The notes under the pieces: generated by a model | What the model was told of the DNA's origin: nothing | Seen by the model: only the letters and a program-made list of their open reading frames with translations | The model's database searches: none | IMG/VR virus record: IMGVR_UViG_2695420676_000011 | DNA from: a virus | Taxonomy: Duplodnaviria > Heunggongvirae > Uroviricota > Caudoviricetes | Length of the DNA stretch: 38,652 nt | Direction: 5' to 3' (one strand) | Made by a program: the position numbers and the translations under genes | Part shown: in pieces, positions 3,068 to 37,599 of the stretch | How positions within the stretch are numbered: position 1 is the first letter of the stretch | Layout of the letters: each line of letters starts with the position of its first letter

Positions 3068-3179
3068 AACTGAAGTTGCCCTGAAAATGAAATTTTTTTG
3101 CACAACCGCAGAACTTTTCCGCAGGGCATCAGTCTTAATTAGTGCCACTGCTTTTCTTTGATGTCCCCATTTTGTGGAG

Positions 3180-3222
3180 CCCATCAACCCCGCCATTTCG
3201 GTTCAAGGTTGATGGGTTTTTT
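3180..3222 (+). terminator. Rho-independent terminator about 110 bp downstream of ybjL
   Basis: Perfect 10-bp stem cccatcaacc / ggttgatggg with a 17-nt loop, followed by tttttt. Confidence 0.65.
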
Positions 3223-3302
3223 GTTGCCTGAAATTTATGCCGTTTAAAATCATGACGTTAGAAGCACTGTTTTTTAACGATGGCGACAAAATGGCGGCAG
3301 CG

Positions 3303-22441: not shown

Positions 22442-24208
22442 ATGAACACCACACTGACACCCGCAGATCTCGATCCCCGTCGGCAGGCCATGCTGCTGTA
22501 CTTTCAGGGATACCGCGTAGCCCGCATTGCTGAAATGCTGGGCGAGAAAGTTGCAACCGTTCACAGCTGGAAAAAACGCGACAAGTGGGGTGACTATGGG
22601 CCGCTGGATCAGATGCAGCTCACCACCGCCGCACGCTACTGCCAGCTCATTATGAAGGAGCACAAAGAAGGGAAAGATTTCAAAGAAATTGACCTGCTGG
22701 CGCGCCAGTCGGAGCGCCACGCGCGCATCGGCAAGTTTAACAATGGCGGTAACGAAGCCGACTTAAACCCTAACGTCGCCAACCGCAACAAAGGCCCGCG
22801 CCGTCAGCCGGAAAAGAACGTTTTCACCGATGAACAAATTGAGAAGCTGGAAGAAATCTTCCACTCCTCCATGTTCAACTACCAGCGCCACTGGTGGGAA
22901 GCCGGAAAAACCAACCGCATCCGCAACCTGCTGAAGTCACGCCAGATCGGCGCGACCTTTTACTTTGCCCGTGAAGCCCTGATTGACGCCCTGCTGACCG
23001 GACGTAACCAGATTTTCCTTTCCGCCAGTAAGGCACAGGCCCACGTCTTTAAGCAGTACATCATCGACTTCGCCAAAGAAGTGGAGGTGGAGCTGAAAGG
23101 CGATCCGATGGTGCTTCCTAACGGGGCCACGCTTTACTTCCTCGGCACCAATGCCCGCACAGCCCAGAGTTATCACGGTAACCTGTATCTGGATGAATAT
23201 TTCTGGATACCGAAATTCCAGGAGCTGCGCAAAGTGGCTTCCGGTATGGCTATTCACAAAAAATGGCGACAAACCTATTTTTCCACGCCATCCAGCCTGA
23301 CCCACAGTGCTTATCCGTTCTGGTCCGGTGCGCTGTTCAACCGTGGACGCAACAAAGCCGACAAGGTGGACATCGACCTGTCCCACAGCAATCTGGCCCC
23401 CGGCCTGCTGTGCGCAGACGGGCAGTACCGCCAGATAGTCACTGTGGAAGATGCGGTGCGCGGCGGCTGCAACTTGTTCGACCTCGACCAGTTACGCATG
23501 GAATACAGCCCGGATGAATACCAGAACCTGCTGATGTGTGAGTTCGTGGACGATCTCGCGTCCGTGTTCCCGCTCAGCGAGCTGCAGGGGTGCATGGTGG
23601 ACAGCTGGGAAGTCTGGACCGACTTTCATGCACTGGCGCTGCGCCCGTTTGGCTGGCGCGAAGTGTGGATCGGTTATGACCCGGCAAAAGGTACGCAAAA
23701 CGGCGACAGCGCCGGGTGCGTGGTGGTGGCACCGCCAGCCGTGCCGGGCGGTAAGTTCCGCATTCTTGAGCGTCACCAGTGGCGCGGAATGGACTTCCGC
23801 GCCCAGGCTGACGCCATCAAAAAACTGACCGAGCAGTACAACGTGACCTATATCGGCATTGACTCGACAGGCGTCGGTCACGGGGTTTATGAGAACGTGA
23901 AAGCGTTCTTTCCTGCCGTCCGGGAGTTTGTCTACAACCCCAACGTTAAAAACGCTCTGGTACTCAAGGCCTACGACATTATCAGCCACCGCCGTCTGGA
24001 GTTTGACGCCGGACACACCGACATAGCGCAGTCATTTATGGCAATCCGTCGCGCCACCACCGCCAGTGGCAACCGCCCGACCTATGAAGCCAGCCGCAGC
24101 GAAGAAGCCAGCCACGCCGATCTGGCCTGGGCAACAATGCACGCACTGTTTAACGAACCACTGCAAGGCGAGTCCGCCAATACCAGTAATATTGTGGAGA
24201 TTTTTTGA
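22442..24208 (+). CDS. P: Terminase large (ATPase) subunit gpP
   Basis: 588-aa ORF divergent from O and followed by the portal gene, as in P2. Confidence 0.9.
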   Translation: MNTTLTPADLDPRRQAMLLYFQGYRVARIAEMLGEKVATVHSWKKRDKWGDYGPLDQMQLTTAARYCQLIMKEHKEGKDFKEIDLLARQSERHARIGKFNNGGNEADLNPNVANRNKGPRRQPEKNVFTDEQIEKLEEIFHSSMFNYQRHWWEAGKTNRIRNLLKSRQIGATFYFAREALIDALLTGRNQIFLSASKAQAHVFKQYIIDFAKEVEVELKGDPMVLPNGATLYFLGTNARTAQSYHGNLYLDEYFWIPKFQELRKVASGMAIHKKWRQTYFSTPSSLTHSAYPFWSGALFNRGRNKADKVDIDLSHSNLAPGLLCADGQYRQIVTVEDAVRGGCNLFDLDQLRMEYSPDEYQNLLMCEFVDDLASVFPLSELQGCMVDSWEVWTDFHALALRPFGWREVWIGYDPAKGTQNGDSAGCVVVAPPAVPGGKFRILERHQWRGMDFRAQADAIKKLTEQYNVTYIGIDSTGVGHGVYENVKAFFPAVREFVYNPNVKNALVLKAYDIISHRRLEFDAGHTDIAQSFMAIRRATTASGNRPTYEASRSEEASHADLAWATMHALFNEPLQGESANTSNIVEIF

Positions 24209-25245
24209 TGGGAAAGCGTAAGAAAAACCGCGCAGCGGCGATGAATCAGATCCAGCATAAAAGCCAGACTTCAGCCGAAGCATTCAGCTTCGGCGATCCC
24301 GTTCCTGTTCTGGACCGCCGCGAATTACTGGACTATGTGGAATGCGTACAGATGGACCGCTGGTATGAGCCACCAGTGAGTTTCGACGGACTGGCGCGAA
24401 CCTTCCGCGCCGCCGTGCATCATAGCTCACCGATTGCGGTGAAATGCAACATTCTGACCAGCACCTACATCCCTCACCCGCTGCTCAGCCAGCAGGCTTT
24501 TTCACGTTTTGTGCAGGACTATCTGGTATTTGGTAACGCCTACCTGGAGAAACGCACGAACCGGTTCGGTGAAATTATCGCCCTTGAGCCTGCGCTGGCA
24601 AAATACACCCGACGCGGGTTAGACCTGGATACCTACTGGTTTGTGCAATACGGTATGACAACCCAGCCGTATCAGTTCACGAAAGGCAGCATCTTTCATC
24701 TGATGGAACCCGATATCAACCAGGAGATCTACGGCCTGCCCGGCTATCTTTCTGCCATTCCGTCAGCCCTGCTCAACGAGTCCGCCACGCTGTTCCGACG
24801 CAAATATTATATTAATGGCAGCCATGCAGGATTCATAATGTACATGACCGATGCCGCTCAGAACCAGGAGGATGTGAACAACCTCCGCAACGCGATGAAA
24901 AGCGCCAAAGGTCCGGGCAACTTCCGCAACCTGTTTATGTACTCGCCTAACGGCAAAAAGGACGGGCTTCAGATCATCCCGCTGTCAGAAGTGGCGGCAA
25001 AGGATGAGTTTCTGAACATCAAGAACGTAAGCCGGGACGACATGATGGCGGCGCATCGTGTGCCGCCGCAAATGATGGGGATTATGCCGAATAATGTTGG
25101 GGGGTTTGGGGATGTGGAGAAGGCAAGCCGTGTATTCGTCCGAAATGAGCTAATGCCACTACAAAAGCGATTACAGGAGATGAATGATTGGCTTGGCAAG
25201 GAGGCGATACAGTTTAATACCTACTCGCTAGATATAGTCCCATAA
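24205..25245 (+). CDS. Q: Portal protein gpQ
   Basis: 346-aa ORF with 4-bp overlap with P. Confidence 0.9.
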   Translation: MMGKRKKNRAAAMNQIQHKSQTSAEAFSFGDPVPVLDRRELLDYVECVQMDRWYEPPVSFDGLARTFRAAVHHSSPIAVKCNILTSTYIPHPLLSQQAFSRFVQDYLVFGNAYLEKRTNRFGEIIALEPALAKYTRRGLDLDTYWFVQYGMTTQPYQFTKGSIFHLMEPDINQEIYGLPGYLSAIPSALLNESATLFRRKYYINGSHAGFIMYMTDAAQNQEDVNNLRNAMKSAKGPGNFRNLFMYSPNGKKDGLQIIPLSEVAAKDEFLNIKNVSRDDMMAAHRVPPQMMGIMPNNVGGFGDVEKASRVFVRNELMPLQKRLQEMNDWLGKEAIQFNTYSLDIVP

Positions 25246-25279: not shown

Positions 25280-26020
25280 TTACTCAATAGGTTCAAACTC
25301 ATCCTGAGGAATCAGCGTCGATTGACAGGCTTGGCTTAGTACTCCTGATAATTTACATAATAACCGATAGTTATGAGGAGCATCATCGCTAATCTTTTCG
25401 ACCGTTAAAGTGATTGATTTTGGATCATCCAATAACATCTTCTTGATATCATTACTTAAATACCTAGGGCAGTAACCAACGATTTCAGCTGGTTTATCTG
25501 CACGAACGACAACAGCATCCCCATCGTATTCATTTTGAAGATCCAAGCAAAGACGCAAAATTTGCCCCGGTTTCAATTCAGATACACGAGCATTAGCTAA
25601 GCTATTTAAGTAACCAAGTCCATGTAAGAAGAAAAAATGCTCAAAGTTACCATCAGAATCAACATCAATTTTTTTGAAAATCTGCAGCTGATCAGTGCTT
25701 CGTAAGCCTCCCGAGCGAGCAAGAATATCGATAGGATTTACCTTATCTTCTTCAAATCCAAGCCATTTAATGAAACTCGGATACTCTGGACGTCTCGGTG
25801 ATAAAAGGCGATTTTTAAAAAGAGGAAACAATTCTTCCGAAACATAAGTTTCACGAACATCACTCATGCCGCTAAACTTTGTAAATTTAGTAGATTTGAG
25901 AGCACCTTTGGTATACCTGAAAACATACCCCGATTTGCGCTCTTGCAAGTTACCAACAACATGCCAGTCTCTGGTATCTGGTGCCTGCCATGCGACGTAA
26001 ACGGAGTTTGTATTAGTCAT
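25280..26020 (-). CDS. HIRAN-domain protein, putative partner of the HipA-like kinase
   Basis: 246-aa ORF overlapping the upstream kinase gene by 4 bp; C-terminal ~100 aa resemble a HIRAN domain (ILRLCLDLQNEYDGDAVVVRAD...EIVGYCPRYLSNDIKKML); AT-rich. Confidence 0.55.
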   Translation of the reverse strand: MTNTNSVYVAWQAPDTRDWHVVGNLQERKSGYVFRYTKGALKSTKFTKFSGMSDVRETYVSEELFPLFKNRLLSPRRPEYPSFIKWLGFEEDKVNPIDILARSGGLRSTDQLQIFKKIDVDSDGNFEHFFFLHGLGYLNSLANARVSELKPGQILRLCLDLQNEYDGDAVVVRADKPAEIVGYCPRYLSNDIKKMLLDDPKSITLTVEKISDDAPHNYRLLCKLSGVLSQACQSTLIPQDEFEPIE

Positions 26021-26931
26021 TCTAGTAACCTTCTGCGATTTTCCATTACCATTAACGTTGCAAATCTACGTGCGCTGTCGGATATACACGATGAAGGCAC
26101 TTGGTTAAACACATCTGTAATGGAATCTTCTGTTAAAACGCTCAACTTACCTAACCAATGGTCGCGAGCGGCAACTCTCCCTTCAACTGCATGTTGAAAT
26201 GCTTCAACGGTCAGCAAGGGCTTTTTATCAGTTTTTGCTTTGAATAGCTCAGAGCGAGCTTTTCTTACAAAACATGGGATTTGTCGATTTTTATCTTTAG
26301 TATTAAGCCGTTCGTTACGCTCATCATCTAACATCTCCCTTCCTAAACTAGCGGCATGATCGTATGTTGGACACAAAAACTGCTCACCAGTTTCATTGTT
26401 AAGCATGATCGCCCAATTTTCATGATGGCGATCTTGATTACTCACAAGTGCATCGAGCATCAAATATCCACAAAATACATCTGCTGCATTTAGCCCGGTT
26501 AGATCATATACACTCGGAGGAGGCTTGATAGATTCCCTATCTAAACAACCCAATACCCTTGTGACAGTGTGTTCTCTGACCCTTACCGGCTTTTCCCCGG
26601 CTTGTAAAGGCCCAGGATAATCGAATGTCGAACTGTGAAGCACTTCATTTCCCATTACCATCCGGAAACCAGATGGAATGATATTCTGAGTCACCACACC
26701 GAATCGACCATTGTATCGCGCCAAATCATAGCTAGCATGTGGAATGTTAAGCAAATGACATAACTCAGCAGCACACTTTTCAGACCAATGCTCGCCAGTA
26801 CCTGGCCTAGAGTACTTAAACAACTGCAAATTTACAGTGTCATCGGAGAAATAGAACCAAAACTTCTCTTTGGTTCCTAACTGTTCAAGATCGTTAGCTA
26901 CGGGGCTAAGCTCTACCAATTGGTATGGCAT
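26017..26931 (-). CDS. HipA-like serine/threonine kinase (kinase core only)
   Basis: 304-aa product with a HipA-type catalytic loop VSNQDRHHENWAI and downstream CPTYDHAASLG; AT-rich; first gene of a two-gene operon. Confidence 0.6.
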   Translation of the reverse strand: MPYQLVELSPVANDLEQLGTKEKFWFYFSDDTVNLQLFKYSRPGTGEHWSEKCAAELCHLLNIPHASYDLARYNGRFGVVTQNIIPSGFRMVMGNEVLHSSTFDYPGPLQAGEKPVRVREHTVTRVLGCLDRESIKPPPSVYDLTGLNAADVFCGYLMLDALVSNQDRHHENWAIMLNNETGEQFLCPTYDHAASLGREMLDDERNERLNTKDKNRQIPCFVRKARSELFKAKTDKKPLLTVEAFQHAVEGRVAARDHWLGKLSVLTEDSITDVFNQVPSSCISDSARRFATLMVMENRRRLLE

Positions 26932-27083
26932 CTGACATCCCTGTTTAGCGGATTATGAATAAGTTAGGTTCCATTTTATCCAAACATTGTCAAATACTCT
27001 AAGATTTATTAGATGATAGAGCGATACTGTATGCATGTCCAGCAATCAAATCAATATATAACTCTTATATGACTTAGCGCGCG

Positions 27084-27102
27084 CTCGTATCCCCGCCACG
27101 CC
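27084..27102 (-). other. Candidate cos (cohesive-end) site of the prophage
   Basis: Minus strand reads GGCGTGGCGGGGATACGAG; the first 13 nt match the P2/186 cohesive end as I recall it; isolated GC-rich island in an AT-rich intergenic region in the expected Q-to-A interval. Confidence 0.3.
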
Positions 27103-27526
27103 TGCCCGCTTTATGTAGTGGTTTTCATGCACCTGCATGACATAAGCAAAAGCACGCCAGTTCTGGCTGACTTCAGCAAAAACGATCCTCAAACGATCAT
27201 GCGATCTCATGCGTCATAGTCATGCGCTGCCAAGGGAAGCGTAAATCCGTATCTGAATGACTGCTGAAAAGCGAATCATACGGGTTTACAAAGATGAAAG
27301 TTCGCTGTGAGCGAGAAGCGAACCTTGCAACTTTGTTGGCACAGTTTTAACACCAATTTTTTGAGGATAGCTAGAAAACTTGTGGCATAAAGGATCAGTT
27401 TCCCGATCGAACTTTTTATCAAGAAGGGCTCATAGCAATCGCCAGAAGAAGTGATGTTAAAGTATTGAGCTCGGCGTTAAGATTAAATAAATTACAGACT
27501 AATCCAATGTTTTGTGGAAGGATAAG

Positions 27527-28570
27527 ATGGCAGTCAAGCGCGCATACTACGGTAACGATAGTGACCGAGACTACTTAGAGCGGATATTTCAGTCAGCTAA
27601 CATTAACTTTCTCATCGGATCAGGTGCATCCCTCCCAGCGATTAAAGTACTGGGGACAATCGAAACGGATCTTCAGCAGCTTATTAATGATGAACAGGAA
27701 GATGAATACTTAAGGATGGCAGCTGACTTTTTGTCAGATGTTTGGCTACCTCATGAATGCATGTTGAAGCGCGGCTACGGCACCCCCTTCGCACCTCAGG
27801 TGATCACCGATTTGGAATGTACCCGTGCAAATTATGATGCATTTATGTCTTCACTGGAAAAGATACTGACCCGCCGCCGAACTGGCCTACTTCCGAGGCG
27901 TATTAACGTTTTTACAACTAATTATGATTTATTCATCGAAGAAGCTGCCACACGTAATAACAATATTCTTTTTAATGATGGATTCAATAGAAGAGCAAGT
28001 ATTTTGGGAGATGCGGAATTTGATGCGGGTAGCTTTAATCATTCTGTAAGTGCAACCGGAAATCTGTATAATTATAAAGTTGAGCTTCCTACTGTTAACC
28101 TTATAAAACTTCATGGTTCGCTCTCTTGGCAGCATTCTAAAGGGAAAATCATTTATCGTATTGCAGATATTAAGCCGCTTGACTTTCCCACCCTAGCCGA
28201 AATGAAAGGATGGGTACTTGCTCATGCACTTATTCTTCCACGTAAGGAGAAGTTTAAAGAGACTCTACTACAGAACGTTTATTATGATTTACTGAGAACC
28301 TATTCCAACGAGCTTGATAAAGAAGCAACTTTACTAATTGTCTTTGGGTTCTCGTTTGCTGATGAGCACATTGAAACGATAACTAAAAAAGCCCTGCGCA
28401 ACGCCACCCTGAAGCTACTGATCTTTGCTTTCGATGAGGCCAGTGTTAACGGCTTTATGGAGAAATTTCGGGATTACTCAAACGTAGAGATTATTTATCG
28501 GCCGGGAAGAAATGTTGATTTTCCGGTAATGAATAACATTATCACGTGCTATCTGGGAGGCTCGAGATGA
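27527..28570 (+). CDS. SIR2-family NADase of a SIR2-HerA anti-phage system
   Basis: SIR2-like motifs NFLIGSGAS, TTNYD and KLHGS; ATG at 27527 with RBS (ORF track start 27512 is TTG); stop overlaps the HerA start (ATGA). Confidence 0.8.
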   Translation: MAVKRAYYGNDSDRDYLERIFQSANINFLIGSGASLPAIKVLGTIETDLQQLINDEQEDEYLRMAADFLSDVWLPHECMLKRGYGTPFAPQVITDLECTRANYDAFMSSLEKILTRRRTGLLPRRINVFTTNYDLFIEEAATRNNNILFNDGFNRRASILGDAEFDAGSFNHSVSATGNLYNYKVELPTVNLIKLHGSLSWQHSKGKIIYRIADIKPLDFPTLAEMKGWVLAHALILPRKEKFKETLLQNVYYDLLRTYSNELDKEATLLIVFGFSFADEHIETITKKALRNATLKLLIFAFDEASVNGFMEKFRDYSNVEIIYRPGRNVDFPVMNNIITCYLGGSR

Positions 28571-30426
28571 GCAGGCATTTTACTGAAGAGGAAGCGGTGC
28601 TCCGTATAGGCGAAGTCTGTGAGGTTTCTGGACGCGCTGTGACAATTTTGGTCGATAAAAACAAAAATCTCAGTGACTTGTTTTATCAGGGAAAAGTTCT
28701 AAGAAATGTATCAGTGGGTAGCTTCATTGAGATCAAAAAAGGTTTCATGAGCCTGATCGGCAAGGTTGAAGCGGAACGAATCATTGAGGAAAAACATCTC
28801 GCTGGGAGCGGCAGTGATGCCTGGCGATATCGGCGATACCTGACCTCTACTCTTACGGGTTACATTGATCGTACTGGTTGCTTCATTGGTGGTTCGCGTG
28901 AACTACCTCTCATCGGCAATGAAGTCTTCGTGGTAACTGAAGAGATGATACAAACGGTTCATCAGATAGCTAATGCAGACGAAACTGTAATGAGGTTTAC
29001 TCGTACAGATCTTGAAGATATTGAAATTGCACTACCAATCAATGGTCTTATTAATTCCCACATTGCCATTTTCGGTAATACAGGCAGCGGAAAGTCAAAT
29101 ACCCTAGCCGCGCTATACAAAGCAGGTATTGCCCAAGTTAAACATATTCTCGGCAACCACTTTAGTGAAAGATGCAAATTTATTCTATTCGACTTTAATG
29201 GAGAATATACTGCCCCACGCTGTATTACTGACGAGAAGACGGTTTATAATCTCAACACGCACCATGCAAATGGTGACAAACTTCCTCTACCCAGAGAGGT
29301 TCTACTTGAGCATGATATGCTCTCAGTTCTAACCGATGCAACAGACAAAACACAGAAACCTTTCCTGAAGAGAGTTCTTGAGTTTCGCAAGAAAGTGATG
29401 ACTGCTGATAATCCTCTTGAGTTTATGCGCAATATCCTGAAGAAAAAAGTCAGACAAAATCTCTTTAGTAGCGACAAACCCAAATGCGATACTATAAATC
29501 AGTTTCTTAGCCCAATTTTCAAAGATGACCCAGAACTTATATCTGATCTTGAGTATCATTCAACTGCATATAAATGGAAATTGAGGGGTGGTAGTATTTT
29601 CAATACAGAAGCTGATACTGAGCGCTCCTATCTATTCAGTCTTGCAAGCAATTTTTTATTTAAAACTGATATGATTGAAGAACTGTTGGACTTTATGTAC
29701 TTACAGTTAATACAGGAATATTTATCTAACAAGTCTAACCCTGAACATATTTCACCAGTTATAAATAGAATGAGTGCTAACCGTAAAGATATAGCCAAAA
29801 TATTTGATACTTCCGGACAGTCTGACTTTTGGGGTGAACATAATTTCACGGTTGTGAATCTAAATATGGTTAATATAACCATGAAAAAAACGCTTCCTCT
29901 TTTGATAGCCAAGTGGGCTTACAATATGAAGAAAATGTCTACAGAGAAATCTACACTGCACATCATTATAGATGAAGCCCACAATATTTTGTCTAATACT
30001 TCTTTTCGGGAAACGGAAAGTTGGAGAGATTATCGTCTGGAAACTTTTGAGGAAATCATAAAGGAGGGGAGAAAATTTGGAGTTTTTATCACAATTTCCA
30101 GTCAACGCCCTAATGATATATCGTCGACAATCATATCCCAAGCACACAATTATTTTATTCATCGCCTTATTAATCAGAATGATCTGTACGCAATTGAAAA
30201 ATCAGTATCATATATAGATCGACTGACTGAAGAGTCGATTCCAACGCTATCTACAGGAACCTGTATTTTTAGTGGTATCGTCTGCCCCATGCCGCTCAAA
30301 TTAAGGGTAGCTGAACTTCCAATTGAAGAAAAACCTAAGAGTAATACTATTTCCTTCAACGATTTAATACCTGAGAGGCTGGGAGAGGATGACCAGAGCG
30401 ACTACGTAATAACCAGCCCTCACTAA
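28567..30426 (+). CDS. HerA-like (FtsK/HerA superfamily) ATPase of a SIR2-HerA anti-phage system
   Basis: Walker A IAIFGNTGSGKSNT and Walker B LHIIIDEAHN; GGGAGG RBS; translationally coupled to the SIR2 gene. Confidence 0.85.
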   Translation: MSRHFTEEEAVLRIGEVCEVSGRAVTILVDKNKNLSDLFYQGKVLRNVSVGSFIEIKKGFMSLIGKVEAERIIEEKHLAGSGSDAWRYRRYLTSTLTGYIDRTGCFIGGSRELPLIGNEVFVVTEEMIQTVHQIANADETVMRFTRTDLEDIEIALPINGLINSHIAIFGNTGSGKSNTLAALYKAGIAQVKHILGNHFSERCKFILFDFNGEYTAPRCITDEKTVYNLNTHHANGDKLPLPREVLLEHDMLSVLTDATDKTQKPFLKRVLEFRKKVMTADNPLEFMRNILKKKVRQNLFSSDKPKCDTINQFLSPIFKDDPELISDLEYHSTAYKWKLRGGSIFNTEADTERSYLFSLASNFLFKTDMIEELLDFMYLQLIQEYLSNKSNPEHISPVINRMSANRKDIAKIFDTSGQSDFWGEHNFTVVNLNMVNITMKKTLPLLIAKWAYNMKKMSTEKSTLHIIIDEAHNILSNTSFRETESWRDYRLETFEEIIKEGRKFGVFITISSQRPNDISSTIISQAHNYFIHRLINQNDLYAIEKSVSYIDRLTEESIPTLSTGTCIFSGIVCPMPLKLRVAELPIEEKPKSNTISFNDLIPERLGEDDQSDYVITSPH

Positions 30427-30570
30427 TTAACAAAGTGCTGAAGCGGTAACGACCGCTTCTAGCACAAAGCGGACGATCACTTATCAAAATGCCCGCCCAC
30501 CTTACGCCTCGTTTCACTCGTTGCCCAAACTAGCCCCCATCAGAATGAATCCTCCTGGAGGCAACGTTTC

Positions 30571-30804
30571 TTAATGCAGCCAGCTGTCGTCTTCCCACAC
30601 TTTCTGCATAATTTTCATCACTTGTTTTCTTTCTTCATCCAGTTGCAGTCCGGTCAGTTCCACACCGTTAGAGCTACCTTTGCGGATACGAATTACCGTT
30701 TTGGGATACAGGGGGCGCAGATTGCGGTAAAGCTCGGATTCAAGGGCGTCCAGGGTAGACTGGCTAATCTTCTGCTCTTTATCGATCATTATTTCAATGC
30801 GCAT
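30571..30804 (-). CDS. DinI-family protein
   Basis: 77-aa product MRIEIMIDK...VWEDDSWLH resembling DinI; GAGGTGA RBS; second gene of a LexA-box-preceded operon. Confidence 0.7.
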   Translation of the reverse strand: MRIEIMIDKEQKISQSTLDALESELYRNLRPLYPKTVIRIRKGSSNGVELTGLQLDEERKQVMKIMQKVWEDDSWLH

Positions 30805-30814
30805 AAAAGTCACC

Positions 30815-31003
30815 TCAACTGATGACATCCATTGAGCGGTTGTATTCGTGGGTTCTGATTTTTGCCATGAGTTCATCAGTCAATTCAGAAACCCACTGCA
30901 GAGCCAGCCCCTTCTCTTCATCACTACACTCACTAGCCGCTACAAGCTTAAGAAAAAAATCAATGCGCTGGAGCTTCAAAGACTCCAAAAAATAGTCCTG
31001 CAT
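30815..31003 (-). CDS. Small SOS-regulated protein of unknown function (position of the 186 tum operon)
   Basis: 62-aa ORF directly downstream of a consensus LexA box and upstream of the DinI-like gene. Confidence 0.45.
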   Translation of the reverse strand: MQDYFLESLKLQRIDFFLKLVAASECSDEEKGLALQWVSELTDELMAKIRTHEYNRSMDVIS

Positions 31004-31044
31004 CTTTCCTCCTATGACACCAAAGCGATACTGTATACATAACC

Positions 31045-31062
31045 ACTGTTTATATTTACAGT
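31045..31062. promoter_or_regulatory. LexA operator (SOS box)
   Basis: aCTGTttatatttACAGt: CTGT-N8-ACAG with an all-A/T spacer, about 40-60 bp upstream of the 62-aa ORF. Confidence 0.7.
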
Positions 31063-31155
31063 ATATAATAATCTTACTGATGTAAAACGTTTTTTTACGT
31101 TCATCAGCCAGAAATGCCTGGTATTATTAAGAGCACGAATTGTTAACCCGCGTAA

Positions 31156-33570
31156 TTAATACAGGTTCCGCCACTTATCATCTTCCTGCAAACGCTGGTT
31201 CCGATAGAAGATACGCAGGCCTGCTCCTGACGGAATACTGCCGCCGCGAAGGAGTAAATCGACCTCTTTCTCGCTGCCATCAAATCCCCTGGACTTCAGT
31301 TCATACACGAGCTGCTGTCGCTGATGATCTGTAATTCGCTGTTTGTAGTCTTTACGCCGTTTCGGTTTCACCAGGCGTAACCTTGCTGCCAGTTCCCGGC
31401 GCTCTTTTTTGCTCATACTGTGCAGGTAATCGTGCAACTCCTTGTCATCCATACGGGTGATATCAGTTCTGGTATCTCCATCAGCTGATTTGTCTTTCCC
31501 TTGTTGGTACAAATTTTCAGCAAGGGGACAGTTATTGCCACGAGTCCAAGGGGCGCAAGCGCCCTGGTCGGCTGCCGCCTCCTGAACGTCAACGGCCTTA
31601 CGAACCATTTTCCACTTCACTGCATGAGTGCAGATCTTGCCCTCTGCAATGGGTGACCAGATGCCATAAATACGAATGCCGTGATCGCCATAGGCTGTCG
31701 GCTCTTCGTTGATTTCATAAGCGGTTCTGATCAAGTGATATTTGCGGGGAACCAACACGCCGCCCTGCTTCATAATGTAGGTGGCAAAACAGCCAGCATC
31801 AGCAGCAGCCAGAATGGCATCAAGGCGCGGGTTATCCAGTACCGGAGCACCTGCTTTTTTGTCACCCTGTTGCCTTGCCGCCTGACCAGCCAGCAATCGC
31901 AGTTCACGGTAAGCCTGACGCCCCGGAATGCCAAAGAAGCGGAATTGCTGAACACGATGCAGAGACGCCCAGACATTAACGTATTCAGCGTTATCACGCA
32001 GAGATTTACCCGTTTCCTTGCTGATCTCGCCAGCCAGACCACGCCCGTCAATGTTCTTACTGATATATTTCGCGATGTAGCTTGTCGGCGTTCCTTTGCG
32101 CGGGTTAATCAACTCAGACTTAAAGCGCGGCCCAGTGTTATTGCCCAGCTCCTCGCGGTCTTCACGGATGGCAAACTTACGCAGTAATGCAGTGATGGCG
32201 CGGCGGTCTTTTTTGCGCATAAAACACAACAGGTGCCAGTGAACTGTACCGTCATGATGCGGCTCAGCCACCCGCACGCCATACCAGCGCAATCCGGCTT
32301 TGTGCATCGCCTTACGAAATGCAGCAAACATGCCGACCAGATAGTCGCTGCTTTGTCTTACCGTCGAGTTTGTCCAGGTCGGGTTGGGTCTGCCGTTATT
32401 GAGCGTGGAATGGAAACGCGACGGACAGGTGATAGTGTAGAAAACGGCGCAGTCACTGCGCATTTCCGCGATAAGCTCCAGACCTTTAACACAGGCCATC
32501 ATCTCATTGCGGCGATGCGCCGGGTTGCTGCTGCTGGCGTTTACCACATCTTCCATATCCAGCGTGTCGCCGTCTTCGTTCACCAGTTCATGAGAACGGA
32601 AAAACTCCAGCGACTTACGGCGCTGCTCACGTTTATGCATCACGGCTTCATAGCTGACATAGGGGGATGCTTTTTTGCTGACCAGGCAGACAGCACGCAA
32701 CTGCTCTTCCCGCCATTCACAACGCATCTTCCATAATTTCCGATACCACCAGTCGGCACACAACATACGCGCCAACGAACCCGGAATGAGTTCATAGGGC
32801 ACGGGTTTACGGCGGTTTCTTTTCCGACGGAGTTGCTCAAACGCAGGTGGGATGACATCCAGACGCAGGGTTTCCGCTGCCACCTTTTCCCATGTCTTGC
32901 GGATTTCTTCTGGCTTAACGTCATCGGTGGCATACAAATCACCACAAGCTGCATCAAGGCACATACTCATATGCGCAGCTACCAGGGTGGACAGGCGTTT
33001 CACCTGATCCTGACTCATTTCAGGCAGGATCAGCAGGCCGTCCAGCCCTTCATGGCTTGCCATAAAGCGAAAAGATGCAGATAGCTGACTGTCGCGTACA
33101 TGCTCCAGTCGTTCCAGACATGGCTTAATCGTCTCACGTAAATAGCGGGAATAAGCCTTTGGCTTGCCCAGGCTGCTGAAGTATTCAATACGTTGCATCA
33201 GCGGCTTGCTGATATGGGAAGGCTGGGCGTTGACGTCCGCCAGAATGACCATGTCTGAATTAAAACGCTGCTGCTCATGCGCCAGCTTTGCCCGGCTAAT
33301 GAGCTTATCCTGCTCCATTTCGCGCTGGACAGGATCACGTGATTCATTAAAGAAATAACGCTCCCAGACCTGATCACTCAGTGCCTCGCGGCGCAACTGT
33401 TCCTGCTCGTTATCGGCAGCGTACAGAGTGATCAGGTTTGAAAGCGTAGAAACCGGCGCAACTTCCGCCGGGTCCAGATAAGGGTTAATGGCCTTTTTCG
33501 GGCTGTTCCATGAGAATGCTGCAGCAGCCTCGTTAAAGCCGCAGCAGTTGTTCATATCGGCATGACTCAT
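31156..33570 (-). CDS. A: Replication initiation protein gpA (rolling-circle nickase)
   Basis: 804-aa ORF at the end of the early operon, in the P2/186 gene A position. Confidence 0.85.
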
Positions 33571-36285: not shown

Positions 36286-36489
36286 TTAAGCAGACAAAGC
36301 ATCAACAGTCAGAGCAGCCATGTTAATCATTACCTTTTCACGTTTTTTGTCTTTACGAAGACGATGACGAGGTAGTCGGCCATCAGCCAACATGTCGTTA
36401 ATCGTATCAATAGAAAGGCCAGTCAGTTCGCTATAACGTTCGATTGTGACATGTGGTGTATTCAGAGTAATTGAAATGTTAGGTGTCAT
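36286..36489 (-). CDS. apl: Apl/Cox-like excisionase and switch regulator
   Basis: 67-aa basic HTH-like protein, first gene of the rightward lytic operon, divergent from the repressor. Confidence 0.65.
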
Positions 36490-36634
36490 AAGGCAACATT
36501 CCTTCTAGATATGGCTTGTGGCGAGCCGTTGTTTGTCGTGATTAGTAGTGAAGGCTCCAAAAGAACACTTCTGGTTCAACTTTAAGATCGCTTTTGGAAT
36601 CTGTCAACGAATTTTGGATTTCTTTGGAGGACTT

Positions 36635-37204
36635 GTGGATTTCAATAGCGGCGGTAAGAAAGCCATAGAACGTTTAGTTGAAGCATATGGGTTCGGTACC
36701 CGTCAGGCTCTATGTGATCATTTAGGTGTTTCTAAGAGCACCATGGCAACGCGCTATATGCGTGATATTTTTCCAGCAGATTGGGTAATCCAGTGCGCCC
36801 TTGAAACGGGCACCTCGCTTAATTGGCTAACAACAGGGCATGGTTCAAAGCAAGCATCAGCAAATACAAATACTATAGAAGTAGAAAAATATTTATTGTC
36901 TGATGGAGCATTGCAGAAAGACGGTTTTTATATTTTTGATAAGGGATTTCTACCCTCTACGTTTAAAAAACCTTTTGTCATCACAGATAACAATTCTGAA
37001 TTTATTTGTGATAAAGAATTTGATGATATACGTGATGGTAAATGGGTAATAAGTATTGATGGCGAAATAACTATCCGTGACATTACTCGTTTACCCGGTG
37101 GAAGAATCTTCGTCGAGGGTGGAAACAGAGCCTTCGAATGCAAGATAGAAGACATTGAAATAATTGGTAAAATTATAAGTTTAACAGTCAAGTATGTTAA
37201 ATAG
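36635..37204 (+). CDS. cI: CI-like immunity repressor (phage 186 type)
   Basis: Product resembles 186 CI (EAYGF...CALETG...); start placed at in-frame GTG 36635 with GGAGG RBS rather than 36548. Confidence 0.7.
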   Translation: MDFNSGGKKAIERLVEAYGFGTRQALCDHLGVSKSTMATRYMRDIFPADWVIQCALETGTSLNWLTTGHGSKQASANTNTIEVEKYLLSDGALQKDGFYIFDKGFLPSTFKKPFVITDNNSEFICDKEFDDIRDGKWVISIDGEITIRDITRLPGGRIFVEGGNRAFECKIEDIEIIGKIISLTVKYVK

Positions 37205-37219
37205 TACCGGGAGGAAACT

Positions 37220-37411
37220 ATGCTTGGTAAGGTATTTTTTGTGGTTTTGTCATGTTCTTTGTTATTAAACCCACTAACTACCTATGCTAGAAATTATCCC
37301 TGCTCAGGGAAAAAGGGAGGTGTTTCTCACTGTACCTCAGATGGCAAATTCGTTTGCAATGATGGAACTATTAGTAAATCCAAAAAAATCTGTACTAAAA
37401 ACTCACGATAA
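37220..37411 (+). CDS. Small secreted cysteine-rich protein (cargo between cI and int)
   Basis: 63-aa ORF with GGGAGG RBS, N-terminal signal peptide and four Cys in a ~40-aa Lys-rich mature part. Confidence 0.55.
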
Positions 37412-37599
37412 CTTTTGCTTTTATATCTGCGTCTAAAATAAAAATGAGCCGCAGGTTAACCGCAAAAGTTACATGCTCACATAGCAAAAAGAATAGCCAA
37501 CTTAATTATGGCTTCAGTGAGATGTATGGTCGTAGGATTTCATACATTGACACTGGTTATACATACAGTGAAAATGCTCTCTACTGGAGGGCATTTTTT

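Follow-up and report, generated by a model that had tools for sequence, protein, structure and literature searches.

The window, which is the whole stretch of viral DNA that was analysed (38,652 nt), contains a small operon comprising a gene for a 62-aa protein and a gene for a 77-aa DinI-like protein (Table 1), hereafter called tumA and tumB for the homologies described below. The initial annotation had proposed a near-consensus SOS box upstream of the 62-aa ORF, a DinI-like gene following it and an adjoining defence island. All three are borne out: the box is found in that position with a score of 23.2 bits, the second gene matches Pfam DinI with an E-value of 6.6e-23, and the island is made up of SIR2-HerA and PDC-M03. 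The location of the whole operon on the minus strand had been missed. The gap between the replicase gene and tumA measures 152 nt and holds the promoter and the LexA boxes. The order gpA-type replicase, then tumA, is found in the tabulated phage and genomic loci wherever the contig extends that far.

The Shine-Dalgarno sequence of tumA is kept in all 23 aligned promoters. The ribosome-binding site of tumB, GAGGTGA (30816..30810), overlaps the TGA stop codon of tumA and is followed ten nucleotides on by an ATG. This ATG, at 30804, was taken as the start of tumB, and the start of a longer ORF of 101 aa was set aside. The 151-nt region on the 3' side of tumB has a folding z of -4.75, and Rfam returned no RNA family in this structured region. 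From the G+C-rich hairpin listed in Table 1 we infer a probable terminator, the U tract of which is weak. A program-called terminator at 30826..30809 was not adopted, as it covers both the stop codon of tumA and the ribosome-binding site of tumB. A gene for the host small RNA RybB is found at 3147-3225 (plus strand; Rfam, 105 bits). The DNA at the left of the window is therefore chromosomal, and the prophage is situated near rybB.

Table 1. Coordinates of the tumA-tumB operon, its control elements and associated features in the window
Feature	Coordinates	Strand	Evidence or remarks
PDC-M03B and PDC-M03A	25280-26931	-	HIRAN-domain M03B, HipA-like M03A
LexA box TACTGTATGCATGTCCAGCA	27025-27044		19.6 bits; intergenic, 94 nt upstream of the minus-strand PDC-M03A gene (26931..26017)
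SIR2-HerA	27512-30426	+	PADLOC, E 6e-211 and 7e-267
G+C-rich hairpin GAAGCGGU-CGUU-ACCGCUUC	30441..30460	-	Between the convergent dinI-like and herA genes
tumB-like gene, 77-aa DinI-family protein	30571..30804	-	Pfam DinI
tumA-like gene, 62-aa predicted CI antirepressor, orthologue of Fels-2 STM2728	30815..31003	-	Homology, dN/dS
Shine-Dalgarno AGGAGG of tumA	31008..31013	-	4 nt before the ATG; read from the sequence
LexA box 2, CAGTGGTTATGTATACAGTA	31029..31048	-	16.3 bits; offset by 15 nt from box 1, CAGTG common to both
LexA box 1, TACTGTAAATATAAACAGTG	31044..31063	-	23.2 bits; perfect CTGT-N8-ACAG core
-35 hexamer TTTACA of the tum promoter	31081..31086	-	17 nt upstream of TACTGT
P2 gpA-like replicase gene	33570..31156	-	Directly upstream of tumA, same strand
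186-type CI repressor, presumed target of the 62-aa protein	36548..37204	+	Pfam Phage_CI_repr (3e-31) and Phage_CI_C (5e-29)
LexA box CACTGGTTATACATACAGTG	37551-37570		21.6 bits; about 30 nt upstream of the int start codon (37601)

With regard to the promoter, the core of LexA box 1, CTGTTTATATTTACAG (31046-31061), is the sole exact match to CTGT-N8-ACAG in the window. Such a match is not significant alone, because 0.59 are expected per window and at least one occurs in 47 of 100 shuffles. Furthermore, a consensus promoter scan found no sigma-70 site; the tum promoter was missed because its -10 hexamer TACTGT (31063..31058), which lies inside box 1, matches the consensus at three of six positions. 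Both observations would fit a chance match, with the two genes being read through from the replication operon without LexA control. This explanation is extremely improbable in view of the complete box, which is the top site of the window with a LexA matrix made from 17 E. coli sites (0.005 sites of this score expected per shuffled window), and of the second box that overlaps it. It is also at odds with the boxes being conserved in about 200 loci amid variable flanking sequence, and with the Fels-2 orthologue, in which the mutagen MX induced STM2727 5.5- to 14.8-fold and STM2726-2728 acted as one operon (PMC2225428).

For the predicted control of the operon by LexA, this conservation is the decisive evidence. 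Of 199 related loci from three diverged TumA families, only 2 have no LexA box in front of the homologous gene. Comparison of 23 distinct Fels-2-type promoters shows variation in the spacer and the leader against conservation of TACTGT, the CAGTGG junction, box 2 and the -35 hexamer; TTTACA itself is found at identical spacing in 21 of the 23. The box thus agrees with known members of the LexA regulon in three respects: it follows the enterobacterial consensus, it overlaps the promoter and it is conserved in orthologous promoters.

The two boxes form a double operator of 35 nt, TACTGTAAATATAAACAGTGGTTATGTATACAGTA (31063..31029). When CAGTG was extended with 200,000 random AT-rich 15-nt sequences of intergenic composition, none reached the score of box 2. 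The layout, with two boxes, a 15-nt offset and a CAGTG junction, is that of the colicin operators, which bind two LexA dimers and show very tight repression, with expression in few cells and a delayed, high-threshold induction (PMC2994835). By analogy, two LexA dimers would bind cooperatively at the tum operator. This double arrangement was seen in none of 80 loci of the 186 type, 186 and PSP3 themselves having a single box.

The protein encoded by tumB matches Pfam DinI (PF06183) over its full length with 81.3 bits, the cut-off being 24.2. It also matches E. coli DinI (1GHH; E 3e-6), and the alignment includes the C-terminal W-E-acidic-W helix. It is 78% identical to PSP3 TumB and 41% identical to residues 71-145 of 186 Tum (E 3e-24). 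As a member of this family, the protein is expected to bind or modulate RecA filaments.

Profile comparisons identify the 62-aa protein as a divergent homologue of PSP3 TumA and of the N-terminal half of 186 Tum, the half with antirepressor activity. Profiles were needed to establish this link, since pairwise BLASTP against these two proteins found nothing. With hhalign, the 62-aa family matched the family of the Tum N-terminal half with a probability of 96.5% and an E-value of 7e-10, and the link rests on these profiles and an alignment of 48 columns. The 62-aa protein belongs to PHROG 698 and cross-matches phrog_8554 (2e-8) and phrog_1993 (2e-3); the N-terminal half of 186 Tum matches phrog_698 at 6e-6, so that the PHROG hits are reciprocal. 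Diverse members of the 62-aa family become gradually more Tum-like. One intermediate member, P0170, is visibly so, with ...QRIELVARLV...C..SDKELALNWIAEL compared with ...ERVEMIARLT...C..RDREIALNLIAEI in 186. Taken together, the 62-aa and 77-aa proteins correspond to the 146-aa Tum split in two. A stop codon splits tum in Fels-2 and PSP3, and the upstream gene of PSP3 encodes the antirepressor (PMC3121763); this split explains the difference in size from 186 Tum. The initial suggestion of a compact or unrelated antirepressor is consequently correct as to compact, whereas the homology to the Tum N-terminal half contradicts unrelated.

Other searches with the 62-aa protein were less informative. 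Pfam contained no family for it, and a profile search of PDB sequences returned nothing. AlphaFold predicted a two-helix hairpin (pLDDT 88.5), for which Foldseek found only generic helical hairpins in the PDB (best E 0.39). A phmmer search of 1.8 billion representatives yielded 66 clusters, almost all of them proteins of about 50-90 aa, with a few longer ones matching outside the N-terminal position. None of these clusters combined the domain at the N-terminus with an extension of DinI length, and the search did not retrieve 186 Tum. The dN/dS of the gene against its orthologues is 0.04-0.12, with dS near saturation, and the ORF is therefore a real coding gene under strong purifying selection. 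TumA is also kept where the DinI gene is missing, as in ESSI2_ev015 (ESSI2-type phages) and more than 15 genomic loci, all with the LexA box retained. Of the two genes of the module, that for the 62-aa protein is the constant one.

The resident repressor is of the 186 CI type, as opposed to the P2 C or the self-cleaving lambda type, and this TumA presumably acts on it. It is 43% identical to Fels-2 CI overall, with 70% in the N-terminal domain and 28% in the C-terminal domain, compared with 98% for TumA. Mosaicism is high in the immunity module (CI C-terminal domain and Apl; 36286-37204) of loci L005-L046, which otherwise share replicase, CII and TumA proteins that are about 85-90% identical. 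At 50% identity, at least 17 clusters of CI C-terminal domains can be distinguished within the single 62-aa TumA family. In the sequences compared here, TumA is thus decoupled from the immunity type.

This decoupling raises the possibility of a LexA-controlled antirepressor that is mismatched with the resident CI, provides little or no self-induction and acts mainly in trans on co-resident Fels-2-type prophages. Phages whose TumA is 98-100% identical to that of the window have CIs only 41-57% identical to the resident one, and this range holds for those in which TumA is 100% identical. In the 871 locus pairs whose TumA proteins are at least 95% identical, the CI C-terminal domains have a median identity of 33%, and antirepressors acting in trans are documented for Gifsy and Fels-1 (PMC3121763). 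Nevertheless, we consider such a mismatch unlikely, given that the same CI and the same TumA recur in an independent genome (L014) and that the locus is under strong purifying selection. In addition, the CI N-terminal domains in the loci whose TumA is closest to that of the window share the recognition-helix and FPADW motifs, and a conserved target surface is therefore available.

If TumA acts on these CIs, it must recognize something conserved. The obvious candidate would be the CI N-terminal domain, which has a median identity of 73% in the same 871 pairs and shares the motifs S[KQ]STMANR and FPA[DE]W. The first of these, the predicted recognition helix, is near-constant in close genome-derived relatives and more variable in distant IMG/VR members. 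Across families, a 186-type TumA is accompanied by an SYDF-type CI N-terminal domain in 65 loci and by another type in 4, whereas a TumA of the 62-aa family is accompanied by an SYD-type domain in 1 locus and by another type in 96. This co-segregation was rejected as specific support, as the replicase type co-segregates equally well. One locus, in Pantoea stewartii ATCC 8199 (L035; NZ_CP046558), has a Fels-2-type TumA (84% identical) with a double LexA box and a CI N-terminal domain of the 186 type (60% identical to 186 CI). It constitutes a natural test case for antirepressor specificity.

Within the family, the covariation test showed that TumA divergence follows the two CI domains no more closely than it follows CII or gpA. 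The partial r with TumA divergence was 0.19 (CI N-terminal domain), 0.15 (CI C-terminal domain) and 0.21 (CII). These correlations are weak, and those with CI are no better than those with unrelated neighbours, so there is no co-evolution signal specific to TumA and CI. The lack of specific covariation, together with the lack of a Pfam domain, a solved relative or an informative fold match, would be compatible with the 62-aa protein having another SOS-linked role here, for instance as a DinI partner or on a host target, with induction following another route. We give little credence to this explanation, because the protein is homologous to a Tum half that has antirepressor activity (PMC3121763) and because, in the tabulated loci, TumA of this family always occurs in prophages with a 186-type CI. 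The persistence of the protein in phages without a DinI gene also indicates that it is not merely a DinI partner.

The operon is accordingly best read as an antirepressor operon, and it is very probably the SOS-induction switch of a Fels-2/186-type P2-like prophage, with tum split into tumA and tumB. As long as the cell is undamaged, the promoter would be shut by LexA dimers bound to the two overlapping boxes, which span the -10 hexamer and the region where transcription starts. Upon DNA damage, activated RecA would trigger the self-cleavage of LexA, and both genes would be transcribed and translated together. The two-helix 62-aa protein would then bind the prophage CI and prevent it from binding its operators, allowing the lytic promoter to fire and the prophage to be induced without CI cleavage. 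Meanwhile, the DinI-like protein may act on RecA filaments and tune the strength or duration of the SOS signal. The window contributes the anatomy, homologies, synteny and operator conservation to this reading, and the experimental support comes entirely from orthologues. Such an operon would decide the exit from lysogeny after DNA damage, including that caused by quinolones, in very common prophages of E. coli, Salmonella and Klebsiella. Of 5426 complete E. coli genomes, 1125 carry the locus, its two genes being annotated there as 'hypothetical protein' and 'DinI-like family protein'.

Downstream of the operon, a cargo hotspot (25280-30426) lies between the portal gene (24205-25245) and the DinI-like gene, and contains two systems in divergent orientation. 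A LexA box is also found in front of PDC-M03A. Among IMG/VR loci, 39 of 43 distinct upstream regions have such a box at a distance of about 90-113 nt from the start codon. These 39 are all the regions whose M03A is at least 67% identical, and the box sequence varies between loci. The box is absent from the other four distinct upstream regions (five loci), in which M03A is 56-58% identical. This pattern suggests that PDC-M03 is an SOS-controlled candidate defence system.

A further LexA box, in front of int, overlaps a TTGACA hexamer (37547-37552). Of 46 loci that have a TumA of the 62-aa family and a similar integrase (40-100% identity), 45 have a box at this distance, compared with none of 6 loci of the 186 family, which suggests a separate SOS-inducible int promoter. 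Between cI and int, a 63-aa ORF (37220-37411, plus strand) encodes a product with a signal-peptide-like N-terminus, several cysteines and no Pfam match. Fels-2 has nothing at this position and PSP3 has a DUF2511 gene. Possibly, this ORF is a moron that keeps int apart from the cI transcript.

Combining these elements, we tentatively propose that a near-invariant antirepressor could serve many heteroimmune CIs through their N-terminal domain, with the double operator setting a high threshold and with three promoters, those of tumA-tumB, int and the PDC-M03 candidate defence operon, forming a LexA regulon. If this was the case, cross-induction of P2-like prophages that differ in immunity could result from one SOS signal or from one prophage. 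A colicin-like double operator would make these prophages late, high-threshold inducers. The LexA timing of the integrase and of the defence candidate would place prophage induction and anti-phage defence on one signal.

Several known systems can be compared with this operon. Gifsy-1 and Gifsy-2 also have a LexA-repressed operon encoding a DinI homologue and a small non-cleaving antirepressor (gfoA/gftA; PMC3121763). These are, however, lambdoid phages with a different repressor family. In their operons dinI precedes the antirepressor gene, the reverse of the order here, and comparison with the present operon revealed no sequence relationship. The ColE1 cea double operator has the same register and the same shared CAGTG junction, with 29 of 35 bases identical, and Fels-2 box 2 is identical to ColE1 box 2. 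The ColE1 operator sequence used here agreed exactly with NC_001371 over 117 nt. In contrast to the prophage antirepressor controlled here, the ColE1 operator controls a toxin and lysis operon.

The initial annotation had referred to the tum operon at the equivalent position of phage 186, and rightly so: in 186, p95, the LexA site over the -10 hexamer and tum come directly after gene A. The p95 layout, TTCACA / TACTGT, matches the tum promoter of the window. Tum, annotated as 'inhibits CI DNA binding', sequesters CI once LexA de-represses p95 (PMC7708051). Its binding to CI blocks operator binding reversibly and is needed for SOS induction, and the same has been reported of PSP3 TumA (PMC3121763, PMC7708051). 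In 186, the two halves are fused into a protein of 146 aa, with internal starts giving DinI-like products, whereas they are split here; 186 further differs in its one LexA box and in having orf97 downstream in the operon. PSP3 is closer in organization, with a split tumA (60 aa; annotated 'UV induction of prophage') and a DinI-like tumB under a LexA box after the replicase gene. Its TumA belongs to another subfamily (phrog_1993 as opposed to phrog_698 here) and is related at the profile level only, its LexA box is single and its CI is longer (286 aa).

The closest relative is Fels-2 (STM2728 and STM2726.1/STM2727), the locus of which shows 97.6% nucleotide identity. The gene order (A, 62-aa gene, DinI gene) and the double LexA operator are the same, the two 62-aa proteins are distinguished by a single residue and the DinI-like proteins by none. 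The similarity ends at the DinI stop codon, and the cargo on its 3' side comprises SIR2-HerA and PDC-M03 here as opposed to STM2726 and STM2723.1 in Fels-2. Fels-2 Apl is only 22% identical to the resident Apl. The passage of PMC12626290 that describes Bunny et al. 2002 states that the surviving lexA-null isolates of Salmonella LT2 were all without Fels-2; the presence of this prophage renders a lexA-null mutation lethal. Homology, position, LexA promoter and CI type all agree with this relationship. The element can be classed with the published split tum locus of Fels-2, of which it is very nearly a duplicate, and is as such already known, an arrangement that had been overlooked at first, as had the double operator and the strong unlikeness of the CI to Fels-2 CI. 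The basic mechanism is established, and the double operator and the decoupling of TumA from CI represent modest additions to it.
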